Source: a virus. Taken from it: DNA of 30,561 nt. Below the pieces are notes generated by a model. That model did no database searches. It had not been told where the DNA came from and worked only from the letters and a program-made list of their open reading frames with translations. This document shows, piece by piece, positions 14,895 to 19,941 of this stretch. Where the stretch lies: IMG/VR virus record IMGVR_UViG_3300021326_000192. One strand, 5' to 3'. The position numbers and the translations under genes are program-made. Every line of letters begins with the position of its first letter. Position 1 is the first letter of the stretch.

Positions 14895-15523
14895 GTGATA
14901 CAATTGTTTTATTGGAAGAAAGAAAGGAGATTACTACCTTCTTATTGGATGATGGGGTTAAAACATTGGTAGATAATGTAATAACTGCATCAGGTAGTAG
15001 TCTTGGATATGAGTATTCCAATAAGTGCATGGTAGACGATATACTTTGTATTTCAGACAAATCTGCAATAGGAAAAGAAAGTTTAAGAAAATACTCAGGT
15101 GACGATACGGAAGTTCCTGTAGGGGTCCTTGTCAATGAACCTGTTGTAATGACAAATGGGGAGAGAAAAGGAAGTGTACTTCTCTTAGGAGGACTTTACC
15201 GTTTGAAACTAGCTTCAGGAATCGTTAATGTTAAAGCAGGAGATAGGATTAAATTATCTCCAAACGGAGCCATTGTCGATAATGCAGGTGAGTTTCTGGC
15301 ATTTCATCCTGTTGCAAATTCAGATCAATACAATTATGTCAATTGTTTCCAAGTAAGTCTTGGAGGTAAAGGAGAGAAAGGAGACACCGGAGATACAGGT
15401 GCTGCTACTGTTATCTTGGGGTCTTATGATACTTTCGAAGAACTTATAGCAGCACATCCAACTGCCAATGAGGGTGATGCATTCCTGGTGGATGGTGAAC
15501 TCTTCGTTTGGCACAATGATTAA
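14891..15523 (+). CDS. Capsid-decoration paralog fused to a short collagen stretch and a C-terminal HP-GD module
   Basis: Residues 1-157 align throughout with 29137..29622, followed by [13 protein letters not shown] and [34 protein letters not shown]. Confidence 0.8.
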
Positions 15524-15551
15524 AAAAATAAATTTATAGAGGTGTTTATAT

Positions 15552-16424
15552 ATGGCATGGACAAGCGTGGGTACTATTAAAGGACCAAAAGGAGATACCG
15601 GTGAGAAAGGTGACACCGGAGACACAGGTAAAGCTTTTGAATACACAGACTTCACACCAGAACAGTTAGCAGGATTGACTGGTGATAAAGGAGATAAAGG
15701 TGACAAAGGTGATACTGGAGACGTAGGCGCTACAGGAGCAACCGGAGCAACTGGTGAAAAAGGAGATACTGGTGCTACCGGTGCAACTGGTGAAAAAGGT
15801 GATACTGGGGACAAAGGAGCTACTGGAGATACCGGAGCAACCGGTGCTACAGGAGACACCGGAGATCCATTCAGCATTTACAAAACATATGCATCCGTTG
15901 CAGCTATGGAAGCCGATGCAAGTAATGTTCCTGAAGGAATGTTTGTAGCCATCCAATCAGATGTTGAAGATCCGGACAATGCAAAGTTATACTTGAAAGG
16001 AGCAAGTGAATTCACTTTCGTAACTGACATGTCCGGTGCAACAGGTCTTAAAGGTGACACAGGTGCCAAAGGAGATACTGGAGCAACCGGAGCTACAGGT
16101 GCTACTGGTGATAAAGGAGAAACCGGAGACCAAGGCCCACAAGGCGTAACAGGTAATAAAGGAGATACCGGTGCCAAAGGCGATACCGGAGCAAAAGGAG
16201 ATACAGGTAACACAGGGGATAAAGGTGACACTGGTGCCAAAGGGGACACTGGAGATACCGGTGCTAAAGGAGATACTGGGGATACTGGTGAAATGGGTCC
16301 TCAAGGATACAGCACCATCATCAAAGGAAGTTATGCCAGTTACGCTGATTTGATTGCAGCACATCCGACCGGCACAACCGGAGATGCATACCTTGTTGAC
16401 GGAGAACTTTACGTTTTCCAATAA
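15552..16424 (+). CDS. Collagen-like fibre protein 1
   Basis: Long Gly-X-Y runs ([12 protein letters not shown]) interrupted by FTPEQL and FSIYKTY...NAKLYLK domains; GAGGTG RBS. Confidence 0.9.
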
Positions 16425-16451
16425 AAAAACTAAATCCATAGATTCCCTATA

Positions 16452-16489
16452 GGAAGTGCCGGCCGTTAATGTTGGTGCTTCCTTTTTTT
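16452..16489 (+). terminator. Hairpin plus T7 tract, terminator or attenuator
   Basis: GGAAGTGCCGGC / GTTGGTGCTTCC stem followed by TTTTTTT. Confidence 0.65.
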
Positions 16490-16515
16490 ATAAAACAATT
16501 CAAGGTGATAATATG

Positions 16516-16854: not shown

Positions 16855-16860
16855 TTGACC

Positions 16861-17700
16861 ATGGGTTTTACAGCTCCTGACCTTTCAGAAATCCTAGCAA
16901 ACGAACAGGAATTAAATGCAAGATTAACCAATTTAAGAGGATTGCTTAGAAATGAACTGGATGACTTGGCCACCAGCTATTCCAACAATGATTCAATAAA
17001 AAGACTGATTGAAAGAATCACTAATCCTCCGGCCTGGAAAATTGAGAGAAGCTCAACATATGACACTGACCAGCTGGGAACACGTGTTGCAGTAACGGGG
17101 TGTGATGTGTACTCCTGGAACAAATATAATCCGACAACATATGCTGACAGCGACTACTGGTACCTCCAGTCCCTAACAAAATCTTCAAATGCCACAGCAA
17201 CAGCATGGGGATTATTCAACACAGGAACCATTAATCCAACCGACATATATGATTTAATCGTTTATGGTAGGGGCATGGCTATTTTCAACAATAATGCTTT
17301 TTCAGGTGTCGGCTTCAGCTATGGCATACCGCAGGCAGGTTCGGGAATGACAGGATTTTACATTGGAATCACACTGGATTCAGGAACATATCGTCCTGCA
17401 TATGCAATATTCAACAACAGCACAACTCCAATAATAACAAAAATGGATTATGGAACCTATGATTCTTCAAATCAGAAATTCAGATTATACATGATGCACG
17501 ATGATGATTATCTGAAACTGTACTGGTTTAAGGATAATGACTTTTTATGGAATGACTGGTTTGATTTATCCGATTTGCCTCAAGGCTATGAAAGTGCTGA
17601 GCTTAAGTTCGGATATGTTAGTCATGGGACCGGCCTTGGAAGAATGTCATATGTTCCAAGATTATACCTGTCCTCACCATGCAGATTAAATGTACTATAA
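16861..17700 (+). CDS. Putative fibre-tip / receptor-binding protein A
   Basis: N-terminal amphipathic helices (LNARLTNLRGLLRNEL...IKRLIERI), then an aromatic beta-rich domain. Confidence 0.5.
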   Translation: MGFTAPDLSEILANEQELNARLTNLRGLLRNELDDLATSYSNNDSIKRLIERITNPPAWKIERSSTYDTDQLGTRVAVTGCDVYSWNKYNPTTYADSDYWYLQSLTKSSNATATAWGLFNTGTINPTDIYDLIVYGRGMAIFNNNAFSGVGFSYGIPQAGSGMTGFYIGITLDSGTYRPAYAIFNNSTTPIITKMDYGTYDSSNQKFRLYMMHDDDYLKLYWFKDNDFLWNDWFDLSDLPQGYESAELKFGYVSHGTGLGRMSYVPRLYLSSPCRLNVL

Positions 17701-17714
17701 AGGAGGAATCGTTA

Positions 17715-18797
17715 ATGTCAATTGCAAGTGATGTAATAAATACAAATACAAAACTGACAATTATAAGAGATTCATTAAGAGAATTGTTAACACAGCATGG
17801 GATTGTATATTATAGTGATGATGATGTTTTCACGCTGGCAAGAAGAGTCTGGTTTTTAGTCCATCCGACAAACGGATCTCCCGGTGGAACATATCAGGAT
17901 TATGCAGTGGTCGGACATCCTGTTGGTGTTAGTGTCAATAAGGATTCAGATGACGGCAATGAACTCCCGGACGGCAGTGTTGCAGACTTTTTCATAAGAG
18001 TCAACGGTGGAAATGAAATTCATGTAAAATCAGTGTTCAGTAATGGTGAAGCCAGCTGTTCATACATTCCTGAAAATGCCGGTGATGTTTTAACAATCAG
18101 GGCATTGGTCAATGATTTTCAGGGAGTATATCTTGAAACTGAAGTATTGTCGTTTAGATATGAAGATGAATATGAAGTAACTCCTGATTCATACACTTTA
18201 GTTAAATATCCATCCTCGGCCAGCATTACAGTCAGTGAAGTTGATGAATTCAACAGTGACTATGACTATGCCAATGGAGTTGAAGTTTCAAAAACATACG
18301 GGTCTCCTCAGGCGGCTTATATGATTCCAACCAGTTTGATTGATGGGGTTGACTTGTCAGATACTGGAATTCACTTTTCAGCTATTGTAAGTCCGATGTA
18401 TTCATCATCAAGCGGATGGGCAAGTGGAATCTGTCTTTTGAATTCCAATAATCTGAATCATTATCGTGACAATAGGATTCTTGAACTTGGAGCATATCCT
18501 GGAAAAAAGGGTCTGAAATATTCCGGAACAAATCATGCAATAAATGAGATAAATACAAGTAGCGGACAATTAACATTGAATGGTGCATTTAAATTTGAGT
18601 TATGGTATGACGGTTCATATGTTAAGGCAACTATCTCACATTATTGGAATGATACTGTTTATTATACATATGAAAGCTCATCACTTCCGGATGAGATAGC
18701 AAATATGGAAACGGTCTTTCCGGCATTCATGATTTATGATTACGGTGGAAAAATCAGATTCAGAGAATGTTTAATTGAACCATGGAGCAGTGATTAA
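17715..18797 (+). CDS. Putative fibre-tip / receptor-binding protein B
   Basis: AGGAGG RBS before ATG 17715; N-terminal helices (TKLTIIRDSLRELL...VFTLARRV), Ig-like middle and lectin-like beta C-terminal region by pattern. Confidence 0.5.
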   Translation: MSIASDVINTNTKLTIIRDSLRELLTQHGIVYYSDDDVFTLARRVWFLVHPTNGSPGGTYQDYAVVGHPVGVSVNKDSDDGNELPDGSVADFFIRVNGGNEIHVKSVFSNGEASCSYIPENAGDVLTIRALVNDFQGVYLETEVLSFRYEDEYEVTPDSYTLVKYPSSASITVSEVDEFNSDYDYANGVEVSKTYGSPQAAYMIPTSLIDGVDLSDTGIHFSAIVSPMYSSSSGWASGICLLNSNNLNHYRDNRILELGAYPGKKGLKYSGTNHAINEINTSSGQLTLNGAFKFELWYDGSYVKATISHYWNDTVYYTYESSSLPDEIANMETVFPAFMIYDYGGKIRFRECLIEPWSSD

Positions 18798-18798
18798 A

Positions 18799-19941
18799 AT
18801 GGCAGATACAGAATGGATAGAAATTGGACGTGTAGTTGGCGATACCGGACCTAAAGGGGATACCGGAGACATTGGCATCGGAACTGTAATAAAAGGACAT
18901 TACAACACTTATGAAGAGTTCATTCAGGTTCATCCTTCAGGAAGTTTAGGTGATGCATATATTGTTGACGGTAGCTATTATTATTGGGAGGGAACCGGCT
19001 GGGCAAATGCAGGTTCTCTTAAAGGAGATAAAGGTGATACTGGTGATAAAGGTGTTAAAGGAGATACTGGTGCGAAAGGCAGTAAAGGAGACAAAGGCGA
19101 GACTGGACCAGCTGGACCGCAAGGAGAACAGGGACTTAAGGGAGATACTGGAGACACAGGACCTGCTGGAGATACTGGACCGGCCGGGCCGACTGGGGAC
19201 ACTGGAGCTACTGGCGCTGGTCTTACTATTAAATGTTCGTATAGTACTTACGAGGAACTGATTAATGAACATCCTCAAGGCAGTGATGGTGATGGCTATC
19301 TGGTAAACGGATCTCTTTATGTCTGGAACGGTTCATCATGGAATAATGTCGGAAACATTAAAGGAGATAAAGGAGATACTGGTGAAACCGGAGTTAAAGG
19401 AGACACAGGTGTTAAAGGCGATACAGGTGATGCATTCACATTTGAAGATTTCACACCAGAACAATTGGCCAGTTTAAAAGGTCCAAAAGGTGACACTGGA
19501 GGCACTGGTAGTAAAGGTGATACTGGTGCTAAGGGAGATACTGGAGCTACAGGTAAAACCGGAGCAAAAGGAGATACTGGTGCAACAGGTCCTGCAACAG
19601 ATGAAAACGCAGGATGGAAACTGCCAGTCGATGCAATATTGACTACAACAACATTGCCTACTGGTGTTAGCAAAGGATATCGTGTAGCTATTGTAACAAA
19701 TTCAGTAATGGCTATTAAAGAGTATAACGGTTCGTCATGGGAAACTGAATCACTTGATGCCTATTCTGTGATACCTTTAAAATATTCTGGAGGCATACAG
19801 ATGTATCTTGCAAAAAGTAGTGGGCCTGTTTATATGGGAGTTGAATATGGAGTCTTCGGTAAGTTCCGCTTCATGACTCAATCAGCTTATGATGCGCTAA
19901 GTAGCTATGATGAGGATACAATTTATTTTGTAAGAATTTAA
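18799..19941 (+). CDS. Collagen-like fibre protein 2
   Basis: Gly-X-Y runs, two intact HP-GD modules, FTPEQL motif, C-terminal [20 protein letters not shown] motif seen in phage fibre proteins. Confidence 0.9.

Follow-up and report, generated by a model that had tools for sequence, protein, structure and literature searches.

A fibre module divided within the same turn between consecutive genes of a methanogen virus: a possible strand-complementation joint

Why is a small fold that stands unbroken in one viral fibre gene cut inside the same turn at two consecutive gene boundaries elsewhere in the same operon? The question arises from IMG/VR record IMGVR_UViG_3300021326_000192 (the window: the whole 30,561-nucleotide stretch analyzed here), the DNA of a virus whose archaeal host, into which it is integrated, is a methanogen of the gut or rumen. 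An earlier note on this DNA had proposed that trimers are linked in series, the C-terminal domain of one being completed by the N-terminal strand of the next. Judging from the sequences, we consider it fairly probable that this tailed virus of Methanobrevibacter builds a collagen-like fibre from separate segments, encoded by the operon, that would be joined non-covalently. End-to-end assembly by strand complementation, each protein supplying the strand absent from the previous one, is the most likely reading of the sequence comparisons described below.

The operon, all on the plus strand, is headed by a glycosyltransferase-like gene (14301..14894) that matches PHROG 1574 (6e-22) and, weakly, the Pfam families Anp1 and Glyco_transf_21; it is syntenic in all relatives, and its stop overlaps the start of gene A (14891..15523, 210 aa). 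Gene A encodes a decoration-like, all-beta N-terminal domain (aa 1-155), a collagen stretch (aa 158-172), and a truncated module, denoted the socket (aa 169-209; 15407..15520), which contains strand 1, the helix, strand 2, and strand 3, without strand 4; the protein ends 3 residues past Trp207. Gene B (15552..16424, 290 aa) begins with a plug equivalent to module strand 4 (aa 1-11; 15552..15584), followed by collagen, a non-collagen domain (approximately aa 105-160), more collagen, and a second socket (aa 252-290; 16314..16421), which matches the module profile and has a pN/pS of 0.16. Gene B orthologues range from 215 to 290 aa and keep both ends. Gene C, the adaptor (16513..16854, 113 aa), consists of a second plug (MSWVNVGNIKG, 16513..16545), a small beta domain, collagen, and a helical tail ending in NLTLLGS. 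Its orthologues span 63-174 aa, in addition to one rearranged 310-aa form in locus L018; the plug is always kept, and the helical tail is kept in all but the L018 form. As the earlier note had it, each downstream gene carries its own ribosome-binding site: a Shine-Dalgarno-like GAGGTG (15539..15544), located 7 nt 5' of the gene B ATG and kept in the related virus vir323 (BK063679.1), and AAGGTGA (16502..16508) 5' of the gene C start. The space between genes B and C also contains a terminator- or attenuator-like element, a 13-bp hairpin with 7 consecutive T after it (16451..16489; folding energy -21.2 kcal/mol, z -2.96), and vir323 has a hairpin and T-run of different sequence at the same site.

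Two candidate tip proteins follow. Gene D (16861..17700, the start being picked by comparison with orthologues) combines a conserved helical N-terminus (...APDLSEILANEQ...) with a variable globular C-terminal domain and has no match in Pfam or PHROG; in gene E (17715..18797), too, the N-terminus (MSIASDVINTN...) is conserved and helical and the C-terminal domain variable. Gene F, the second fibre gene (18799..19941, 380 aa), encodes a plug-like N-terminus (18799-18840), two intact modules (18868-19029 and 19210-19368), collagen, and a tip with a Phage_tail_C motif, and matches Pfam Collagen and PF24243. Gene B scores 93 bits (7.5e-27) and gene F 63 bits against Collagen PF01391 (cut-off 27.2), and the triplet runs of genes A and C are short and fall below that cut-off.

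The module spans about 50 residues flanked by collagen triplets, with the predicted order strand-helix-strand-strand-turn-strand and the signature IKGxY-helix-HPxGxxGDxYLVxGxLYxW-turn-WxNVGxIKG. It has no Pfam family, falls inside PHROGs 3904, 35286, 15437, and 21765, and yielded no match to solved structures by sequence. A profile (alignment A1) built solely from intact modules matches 2,499 cluster representatives at E<=0.001 and aligns twice with gene F over positions 1-53 (approximately 110 bits each). Gene A residues 169-209 align with positions 1-41 (53 bits), gene B residues 252-289 with positions 2-39 (51 bits), the N-terminus of gene B with positions 43-52, and that of gene C with positions 43-53. 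Considering that the two C-termini match only positions 1-41 and 2-39 and the two N-termini only positions 43-53, these segments are half-members of the module family, and the pieces are exactly complementary, the turn alone being absent; chance is no explanation. The termini that the earlier note quoted are all present, with the module intact twice in gene F and cut in its last turn at the boundaries 15523/15552 and 16424/16513.

In the AlphaFold2 monomer model of gene F aa 1-100, the module (pLDDT 84-88) comprises strands at residues 30-35, 52-56, 59-63, and 68-73 and a helix at 38-44. The last two strands are one 4-residue turn apart, so that the strand absent from the sockets would belong to the mini-domain; across 270 intact copies, this turn measures 2-8 residues. 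The comparison of half and intact modules that the earlier note suggested gives a pLDDT of 46-71 for the gene A socket region, without strand 4, versus 84-88 for the intact module.

Homologues break at the same position, with both cuts present in vir323 and in six other loci with tabulated fibre genes. Among the 631 homologues of gene A, the top 120 cluster representatives are 191-210 aa long, nearly all of them 208-210, and their C-terminus is almost invariant. In six viruses, pN/pS is 0.065 for the gene A socket, 0.16 for the gene B socket, 0.27 for the gene B plug, and 0.14 for the gene C plug, at a pS of 0.42-0.56 on the four pieces and a synonymous divergence of about 0.5; socket and plug halves are both under strong purifying selection.

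The earlier note had also considered that homologues might always be fused. Split forms recur, and only some relatives are fused, at the same operon position and with the glycosyltransferase gene upstream of both kinds. Three fusions (P0273, P0284, and P0299, 371-379 aa) join the gene A domain, collagen, the small domain of gene C, collagen, and the gene C helical tail, and are followed by genes D and E. A fourth (P0271, 384 aa) consists of the gene A domain, collagen, an intact module, collagen, and the gene F tip.

Residue pairs across the cut point in the same direction as the complementarity. In split joints, Glu at the position after the socket Tyr (Tyr+1) occurs with Arg at plug Trp+3 in 6 of 7 cases, whereas an Arg or Lys partner accompanies other Tyr+1 residues in 4 of 37 (Fisher 2e-4), and in intact modules Glu is paired with Lys or Arg in 5 of 14 cases, compared to 5 of 346 for other residues, all these counts representing few independent lineages (about three per set). 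Like-charge pairs are found in none of 7 split joints, and one large intact-module family pairs Glu with Thr. Acidic/basic pairing spans the cut site in both cis and trans.

The cut is found beyond this virus family in a version of the joint that lacks the helix. Genes ending 3-4 residues past the equivalent Tyr are encoded in many phage contigs, including genes for actinobacteriophage minor tail proteins, and the next gene usually begins M-A-W...G-x-(I/L)-K-G; in Bifidobacterium phage PMBT6, the cut occurs at two consecutive gene boundaries. Within IMG/VR, a socket-like gene end lies just upstream of 80 of 141 plug-like starts. Among 169 unique GD.Y.D..TG..Y cores, 67 run into a stop no more than 12 codons on, the distance from the Tyr being 3-4 residues for 51 of the 67. 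When a subsample was selected on the socket alone, the plug came next in 10 of 24 cases by a strict pattern and in about 17-19 of 24 by eye. Helix-bearing cores from other viruses in the IMG/VR sample were split in 0 of 109 cases. In some phages, the gene 5' of a plug-bearing one has a third strand of its own (for example, ...FQFDGTTWRMIF), so the plug does not always need a truncated partner.

The last observation is one of several that fit another view of the boundaries, namely, that socket and plug are two independent caps, one C-terminal and trimerising and one N-terminal, and that genes simply end between such units, the proteins not being joined there or at all. Phage collagens are known to have capping domains that drive their trimerisation and nucleation, such as PfC in Escherichia coli prophage collagens (PMC3368898). 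The module model also weakly resembles the approximately 54-residue trimerisation domain of the multiplexins, collagens XV and XVIII, with near-whole coverage (Z 5.2 for 9bnb_A and 4.4 for 3n3f_B, 8-11% identity, Foldseek E at least 1); no fold match of the module reached Z 8. Furthermore, gene F, intact and with the same plug-like N-terminus, is kept in relatives without a socket in the fetched fibre loci, which also makes it doubtful that this second fibre is an alternative plug, as the earlier note had suggested. We nevertheless regard two separate caps as unlikely. Strand 4 lies one tight turn past strand 3 inside a single, confidently modeled mini-domain, and that turn stays short in all 270 intact copies; the distance from the Tyr to the stop is tightly fixed, as is the place of the Trp (M-x-W); the Glu/Arg coupling crosses the cut; and the fusions place the gene A domain, collagen, and gene C in one fibre.

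Alternatively, the module might be kept at gene ends mainly as a site for cassette exchange, the boundary position being a record of crossovers. Crossovers in mosaic phage genomes classically fall in collagen repeats and conserved fibre motifs, P0271 resembles the product of a within-module crossover between an A-type and an F-type gene, and genes C, D, and E differ greatly between otherwise close viruses. This explanation, which we rate as quite improbable, leaves unexplained both the residue coupling across the cut and the retention of a stop, a ribosome site, and a start inside a fold whose protein sequence is under strong purifying selection. Moreover, the plug-coding copies in this genome are only 60-76% identical at the DNA level, with no long exact repeat beyond the triplet repeats. 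Recombination at the module can, however, go together with strand complementation. Finally, single-chain relatives and a frameshifted gene F in relative L328 would suit the idea, raised in part by the earlier note, of decay, assembly error, or recoding (a recent frameshift or nonsense mutation, or ribosome bypass of the gap yielding one long protein), but this is hardly credible given that both cuts are identical in every relative and independent assembly examined with synonymous sites near saturation, that the downstream genes are in a different reading frame and have their own ribosome sites after gaps of 21 to 95 nt within the virus family, and that a terminator-like hairpin lies within the second gap.

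We therefore return to strand complementation and to where such a fibre would be attached. The N-terminal domain of gene A is 50% identical over 155 aa to a 161-aa paralogue without a fibre (29137..29622, plus strand), which is encoded directly upstream of the capsid gene (29623 onward); its equivalent in vir323 precedes two genes annotated as "major head protein, HK97-like fold." This adjacency holds for the 161-aa paralogue, gene A itself being located in the fibre operon. A more distant, 256-aa paralogue (12587..13357, plus strand; BLASTP 3e-08) has a different C-terminal extension that ends in an unbroken hairpin-like ...DVAIVNNVRFVWEDNKLYMEW... segment. Capsid-associated proteins account for 11 of the 12 best VIA fold matches of the gene A domain, including BB1 (Z 7.4), HFTV1 (6.8), phiCD508 (6.6), and the gp8.5 base (6.4; rmsd 2.2 Å over 53 residues), and lambda gpD comes after them (5.1); all of these matches are weak (Z < 8). 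Because this domain resembles capsid decoration proteins, the fibre is probably a head fibre, anchored through gene A.

In the assembly proposed here, gene A, as a decoration-protein paralogue, would form a trimer on the head, with a short collagen stalk followed by a joint domain devoid of its last strand. Gene B would provide the collagen shaft, its N-terminus (M-x-W-x-x-V-G-x-I-K-G) corresponding to exactly the absent strand and its C-terminus offering the second socket for the second plug, that of gene C; the helical tail of the adaptor probably contacts tip proteins D and E, both variable, through their helical N-termini. Each joint would consist of three half-modules completed by as many plug strands, strand 4 pairing with strand 3 in trans; the fold seen unbroken in gene F would be restored, and the triple helix would continue from one protein to the next. 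Mutual binding of the pieces is what we infer from their complementarity, the fused relatives, and the residue coupling; fit, selection, fusions, recurrence, and coupling lend indirect support to the strand-completion proposal of the earlier note, in which plug and socket would bind. The chain of decoration protein, fibre, adaptor, and tip likewise fits the gene A fold and the fused relatives, and the order and number of pieces per fibre are putative. The presence of plug and socket on the same gene B, which would seem to allow B-B polymerisation, counts against this reading.

Separately encoded fibre segments are familiar from T4 gp34-gp37 and from the Klebsiella and CBA120-type tailspike sets, which join via their N- and C-terminal regions and have exchangeable distal parts; to our knowledge, these joints use dedicated adaptor domains, not halves of a small fold that is unbroken elsewhere in the genome. 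The same signature and predicted fold occur, often in several copies per protein, in phage collagen-like tail fibres and minor tail proteins, where the inter-collagen module is unbroken; here, a cut in the last turn divides it over two genes. We found no paper on this split joint, which the earlier note did not recognise as a described system, but sheet completion between adhesion proteins as such has been solved: in the Tuc2009 adhesion device, a composite domain arises in which strands from one protein fill out a domain of another (PMC4742702). That domain is titin-like and has no sequence or fold relation to the module, the donor is a C-terminal hairpin, and neither collagen nor a head-to-tail chain of trimers is involved.

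Chaperone-usher pili are alike in their head-to-tail joining, in which a site in each subunit is filled by the N-terminal peptide of its successor, an arrangement that would hold here as read from the genes. In the Bacillus proteins F-ENA, F-Anchor, and F-BclA, an N-terminal hook docks to partners that include collagen-like trimers, with the docking domain at the end of the collagen stalk (PMC12357932). The module fold is neither an Ig-like pilin nor DUF4183; the pilin fold was rejected on the basis of the model, an alpha/beta mini-domain of approximately 45 residues rather than an Ig-like sandwich. In contrast to pili and F-ENA, the proposed joint is trimeric (3+3), part of the virion, and without a chaperone, usher, or secretion step, and no chaperone or usher gene was detected with Pfam and PHROG among the genes of the operon and most larger neighbouring ORFs. 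The closest counterparts on capsids are phi29 gp8.5 and SPP1 gp12, the latter a collagen-like capsid binder or spike, which combine a decoration-type capsid base with a trimeric fibre thought to aid adsorption (PMC7602432). Both of these fibres are single proteins, and that of gp8.5 is helical.

If three half-domains are completed by the N-terminal strands of the next protein, such fibres could be lengthened (A-C, A-B-C, perhaps A-B-B-C) and re-tipped through whole-gene swaps. We suggest tentatively, at somewhat short of even chances, that trimeric collagen-like virus fibres use the split module as a snap-joint that is general and portable, the completed domain nucleating the incoming triple helix. 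If so, a single device would be common to archaeal viruses and the minor tail proteins of actinobacteriophages.

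The window represents a tailed virus integrated into a methanogen genome. The closest named relative, Caudoviricetes sp. vir323 (BK063679.1; recorded host Methanobacteriales), shares an identical gene order and encodes a 210-aa protein A with 92% identity; the vir323 contig was also the sole contig returned by an IMG/VR search with protein A, and the source given for database homologues is Methanobrevibacter sp. The fibre operon (14301-19941, + strand throughout) starts with a glycosyltransferase-like gene (14301-14894), which overlaps the start of gene A (14891-15523), followed by genes B (15552-16424, 290 aa), C (16513-16854, 113 aa), D (16861-17700), E (17715-18797), and F (18799-19941, 380 aa; "fibre 2"). 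B and C are each preceded on the + strand by a Shine-Dalgarno-like sequence of their own, GAGGTG (15539-15544) and AAGGTGA (16502-16508), respectively, as the earlier note had reported. The B-C intergenic region contains a 13-bp hairpin followed by seven T (16451-16489; -21.2 kcal/mol, z = -2.96), and vir323 carries a hairpin with a T-run of a different sequence at the same position; the hairpin may attenuate C-F expression compared with that of A and B. Thr predominates at the third triplet position of the B and F collagen (GDT, GAT, GET), a pattern resembling that of O-glycosylated BclA-type collagens. Downstream of the operon, a low G+C region (20251-28601; about 25-32%) inside the provirus encodes a tyrosine recombinase, hsdS cassettes, hsdM, and hsdR, and is flanked by a winged-helix gene (19953-20222) on one side and, from 29137 onward, by the decoration and capsid genes on the other; a DNA methyltransferase is encoded at the corresponding position in vir323.

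The module at issue is a domain of about 50 residues that lies between collagen triplets and is intact twice in F. A profile built from intact modules only (gene F and its vir323 orthologue, alignment A1) matched residues 169-209 of A (profile positions 1-41, 53 bits) and 252-289 of B (positions 2-39, 51 bits), and also the N-termini of the following proteins, namely, residues 2-11 of B (positions 43-52; weak, 1.5 bits) and 2-12 of C (positions 43-53, 12.7 bits). The profile positions are complementary, so that the pieces flanking each boundary sum to one module, with the turn alone missing. The split modules described in the earlier note thus stand, and every terminus quoted there is present. 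Below, the half-module at the 3' end of a gene is denoted the socket, the missing last strand at the N-terminus of the next protein the plug, and the A/B and B/C boundaries (15523/15552 and 16424/16513) joints 1 and 2.

In an AlphaFold2 monomer model of F residues 1-100, the module (pLDDT 84-88) consists of a strand (30-35), a helix (38-44), and three further strands (52-56, 59-63, and 68-73), the four-residue turn between the last two being the site of the gene cut. In the full-length model of A, the region lacking the last strand retains its secondary structure, with pLDDT of only 46-71, a soft comparison because the alignments differ in depth. Sequence searches against solved structures matched collagens only and not the module itself, and Foldseek searches with the module and with A yielded nothing at E <= 0.001. 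Among the weak structural matches, which serve as leads only, the module resembled the N-terminus of Geobacillus virus E2 ORF18 (Z = 6.1), several tailspike N-terminal domains, and the trimerisation domains of collagens XVIII and XV (Z = 5.2 and 4.4). The module was found in 2,499 cluster representatives (E <= 0.001), often in many copies per protein. Phages whose tail fibre proteins contain it include those of Cronobacter, Pectobacterium, Eggerthella, Bifidobacterium, and Clostridioides, as well as crAss-like phages.

Recoding, bypass, or an intron that would restore a continuous chain is ruled out by the differing reading frames, the varying gap lengths, the separate ribosome-binding sites, and the terminator-like hairpin in the second gap. 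The cuts are likewise neither decay nor assembly errors, the alternative that the earlier note had raised against itself. Both recur, at the same position and with essentially the same terminal residues, in independent assemblies of vir323 and the six further loci whose fibre genes were compared: A ends in ...LF(V/I)WH(N/D)(D), B starts with M(A/T)Wxx(V/A)GxIKGPKG and ends in ...LYV(F/Y)Q, and C starts with MxWVNVGxIKGDTG. Within this methanogen virus family, the downstream genes are in a different reading frame, across gaps of 21-95 nt. A near-length search recovered 631 homologues of A, the best 120 of which span 191-210 aa (nearly all 208-210) and have an almost invariant C-terminus. Across six viruses with a synonymous divergence of 0.42-0.56 on the four segments, pN/pS was 0.065 for the A socket, 0.16 for the B socket, 0.27 for the B plug, and 0.14 for the C plug; the value of 0.585 for the C tail was set aside as unreliable, given that one of the orthologues is shorter by a residue. 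No long DNA repeats connect the module copies beyond the triplet repeats, and the plug-coding copies are 60-76% identical. A candidate third kind of C-terminally cut module, P0124, proved to be an artefact of a gene running off its contig.

Cuts of this type are also present in other phages. In Bifidobacterium phage PMBT6, two consecutive gene boundaries are of this kind: at the first, a gene ends in ...GDTYVDLTTGAVYRCQA and the next one starts with MAWTATGGNLKGPKG; at the second, the respective termini are ...GSLYLDLDTGNVYAFNA and MAWSNVGNLKGPKG. An IMG/VR scan for gene starts of the form M-A-W-x3-G-x-h-K-G-P-x-G (h, hydrophobic residue) yielded 84 contigs. Among the 141 plug-like starts in these contigs and the earlier loci, 80 directly follow a gene ending in G(D/S)xYxDxxTGxxYxx, which amounts to 50 distinct junctions, with two in succession in several contigs. 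One of the plug-bearing downstream proteins is almost the same as Mycobacterium abscessus prophage proteins annotated as minor tail proteins; its matches in phages of Gordonia, Nocardia, and Corynebacterium are weaker. The reverse IMG/VR scan, with the socket core GD.Y.D..TG..Y, recovered 169 unique cores. A stop codon occurs within 12 codons of the core in 67 of these, and 51 of the 67 stops are located 3 or 4 residues past the Tyr; 32 of the 169 are intact by a strict pattern, and the rest are mostly intact variants. When cut cores were chosen by the socket alone, a plug came next in 10 of 24 by a strict pattern and in about 17-19 of 24 by eye. Some phage genes located 5' of a plug-bearing gene have a complete third strand. 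Outside the methanogen virus family, the cut was seen only in a helix-less version of the joint; in an IMG/VR sample of 109 helix-bearing module cores, 104 were intact and none was cut. The methanogen viruses therefore show a common type of cut in a module form that otherwise stays whole. In two IMG/VR phage contigs (L164 and L169), the cut is shifted by a few residues, to just past the Trp (...YQKAGGTWV, then MPLELNLMGPG...), so the break point is not absolutely fixed across phages.

The alternative that survives best is that the module consists of two independent caps, with the gene boundaries merely falling between them. This reading leaves unexplained a coupling of residues across the cut. 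At split junctions, a socket Glu right after the conserved Tyr is paired with Arg at position Trp+3 of the plug in 6 of 7 distinct cases, compared with Arg or Lys in 4 of 37 cases with a non-Glu residue at that position (Fisher test, 2e-4); socket Lys/Arg was never paired with plug Lys/Arg (0 of 7), and in one orthologous set, both members without the Glu also lack the Arg. Among 360 intact modules, Glu is paired with Lys/Arg in 5 of 14 cases versus 5 of 346 otherwise, with one repeated family pairing Glu with Thr. Each set comprises only about three independent lineages, and the coupling is therefore supportive rather than decisive.

A search for longer homologues of A identified two kinds of single-chain relatives in Methanobrevibacter viruses, with N-domains 54-61% identical to that of A. 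In proteins of the first kind (P0273, P0284, and P0299, together with about 30 similar clusters; 371-383 aa), an A-type domain and an unbroken collagen stretch are followed by the small C beta domain, a second collagen stretch, and the C helical tail. In those of the second kind (P0271, 384 aa, and P0272), the A-type domain and its collagen lead into a single intact module, which a further collagen stretch connects to the F tip. Both occupy the operon position of gene A, with the glycosyltransferase gene upstream (truncated to 99 aa in one relative, L326), and loci of the first kind contain genes like D, E, and F downstream. Such gene fusions are evidence that A and C belong to the same fibre as the collagen shaft, and these relatives show that the exact place of the cut in A can hold an intact module. 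In other proteins, a decoration-like domain is joined directly to a non-collagen globular domain (P0309 and P0321, 387 aa), or a paralogue of the 161-aa type is fused to a long unrelated C-terminal part (P0308, 474 aa).

The first 155 residues of A are 50% identical to a 161-aa protein (29137-29622) encoded directly upstream of the capsid gene; in vir323, two genes with HK97-like major head protein annotations follow its equivalent. Sequence searches against Pfam and PDB with the N-domain of A and its paralogues returned no matches. For the model of A, 11 of the 12 best structural matches were capsid-associated proteins, including those of Borrelia phage BB1 (Z = 7.4), Haloferax virus HFTV1 (6.8), and phiCD508 (6.6), along with the phi29 gp8.5 head fibre base (6.4); lambda gpD came after these, at 5.1. 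All matches to decoration proteins are below Z = 8, so the assignment of the A-anchored fibre as a head fibre is only probable. Head fibres and collagen-like capsid spikes are known, e.g., phi29 gp8.5 and SPP1 gp12 (PMC7602432). Judging by the P0308, P0309, and P0321 fusions, the decoration-like base seems to serve generally as a platform for various appendages. A distant 256-aa paralogue of the N-domain (12587-13357) has a different C-terminal extension without collagen and ends in an unbroken hairpin-like ...PDVAIVNNVRFVWEDNKLYMEWEG..., reminiscent of module strands 2-4.

On this evidence and that of the complementary termini, we consider end-to-end assembly of the fibre by strand complementation the most likely reading, with moderate confidence. 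A trimer of A would sit on the capsid and display three half-modules at the tip of a short collagen stalk; the N-terminal strands of three B chains would complete them, with the B triple helix running on from there; and the second set of half-modules, at the end of B, would be completed by C. B carries both a plug and a socket, and plugs and sockets differ consistently between joints 1 and 2, which hints at specificity. Complex prediction with three copies each of A 156-210 and B 1-44 gave scores of 0.43-0.46, and an unrelated control reached 0.48, so the prediction counts neither for nor against binding.

The length of C ranges between 63 and 174 aa among close viruses, not counting a rearranged 310-aa form in locus L018, and the plug is retained in all of them; the helical tail of C (...TDTTNAVxNSAIAxAI...NLTLLGS, 16740-16854) is present in all variants except the L018 form. 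C is always followed by D and E, which have conserved helical N-termini (16861-16960 and 17715-17800) and highly variable C-terminal domains. This arrangement suggests that the C tail and the D and E N-termini could form a second, helical joint (bundle) linking the adaptor to exchangeable tips. In L018 (3339-5695), the 310-aa C has a different C-terminus and is followed by D- and E-like fragments of 129, 54, and 256 aa, a pattern suggesting that the tip genes were recently rearranged or are decaying. The proposal in the earlier note that fibre 2 is an alternative plug is doubtful. The N-terminus of F does match the pattern W-x-x-(V/I)-G-x-(I/V)-x-G, and P0271 links an F-type tip to an A-type anchor via an intact module; however, F is intact (319-322 aa) and has the same N-terminus in three other single-chain relatives (L330, L332, and L334), whose fetched loci contain no half-module. 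The partner of F is probably something other than these sockets. In a further single-chain relative (L328, 10041-10706), F is frameshifted to 221 aa and ends in an out-of-frame reading of collagen DNA.

Strand completion between protein subunits is familiar from donor-strand complementation in pili. In phage Tuc2009, the C-terminal hairpin of BppU completes the BppA sheet, forming a composite domain (PMC4742702); strand completion between separate proteins is the very principle proposed here. In another known form of the principle, Bacillus F-ENA fibres dock collagen-like proteins through N-terminal hooks (PMC12357932), and it is established that capping domains trimerise and nucleate phage collagens (PMC3368898). 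The earlier note did not recognise the joint as a described system, and although the principle is known, we found no description of this particular joint in the literature on strand complementation, collagen-like fibres, minor tail proteins, and head fibres, or within two mycobacteriophage cryo-EM studies. What would be new is that a single small inter-collagen fold, divided into two halves, serves as a 3+3 joint linking trimers encoded by separate genes, along with how far this joint has spread.

If this reading of the sequences is correct, it would explain how long, exchangeable adhesion fibres are built from short genes in many viruses and why so many phage "minor tail proteins" starting with M-A-W...G-x-(I/L)-K-G come right after a gene ending in ...GD-x-Y-x-D-x-x-T-G-x-x-Y-x-x. 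It would also provide an annotation rule tying consecutive fibre genes to one physical fibre, and a natural connector of small size (about 35 + 10 residues) with which new tips could be engineered onto collagen-like stalks. For the abundant Methanobrevibacter virus group of the gut and rumen, it would point to a head-fibre system.
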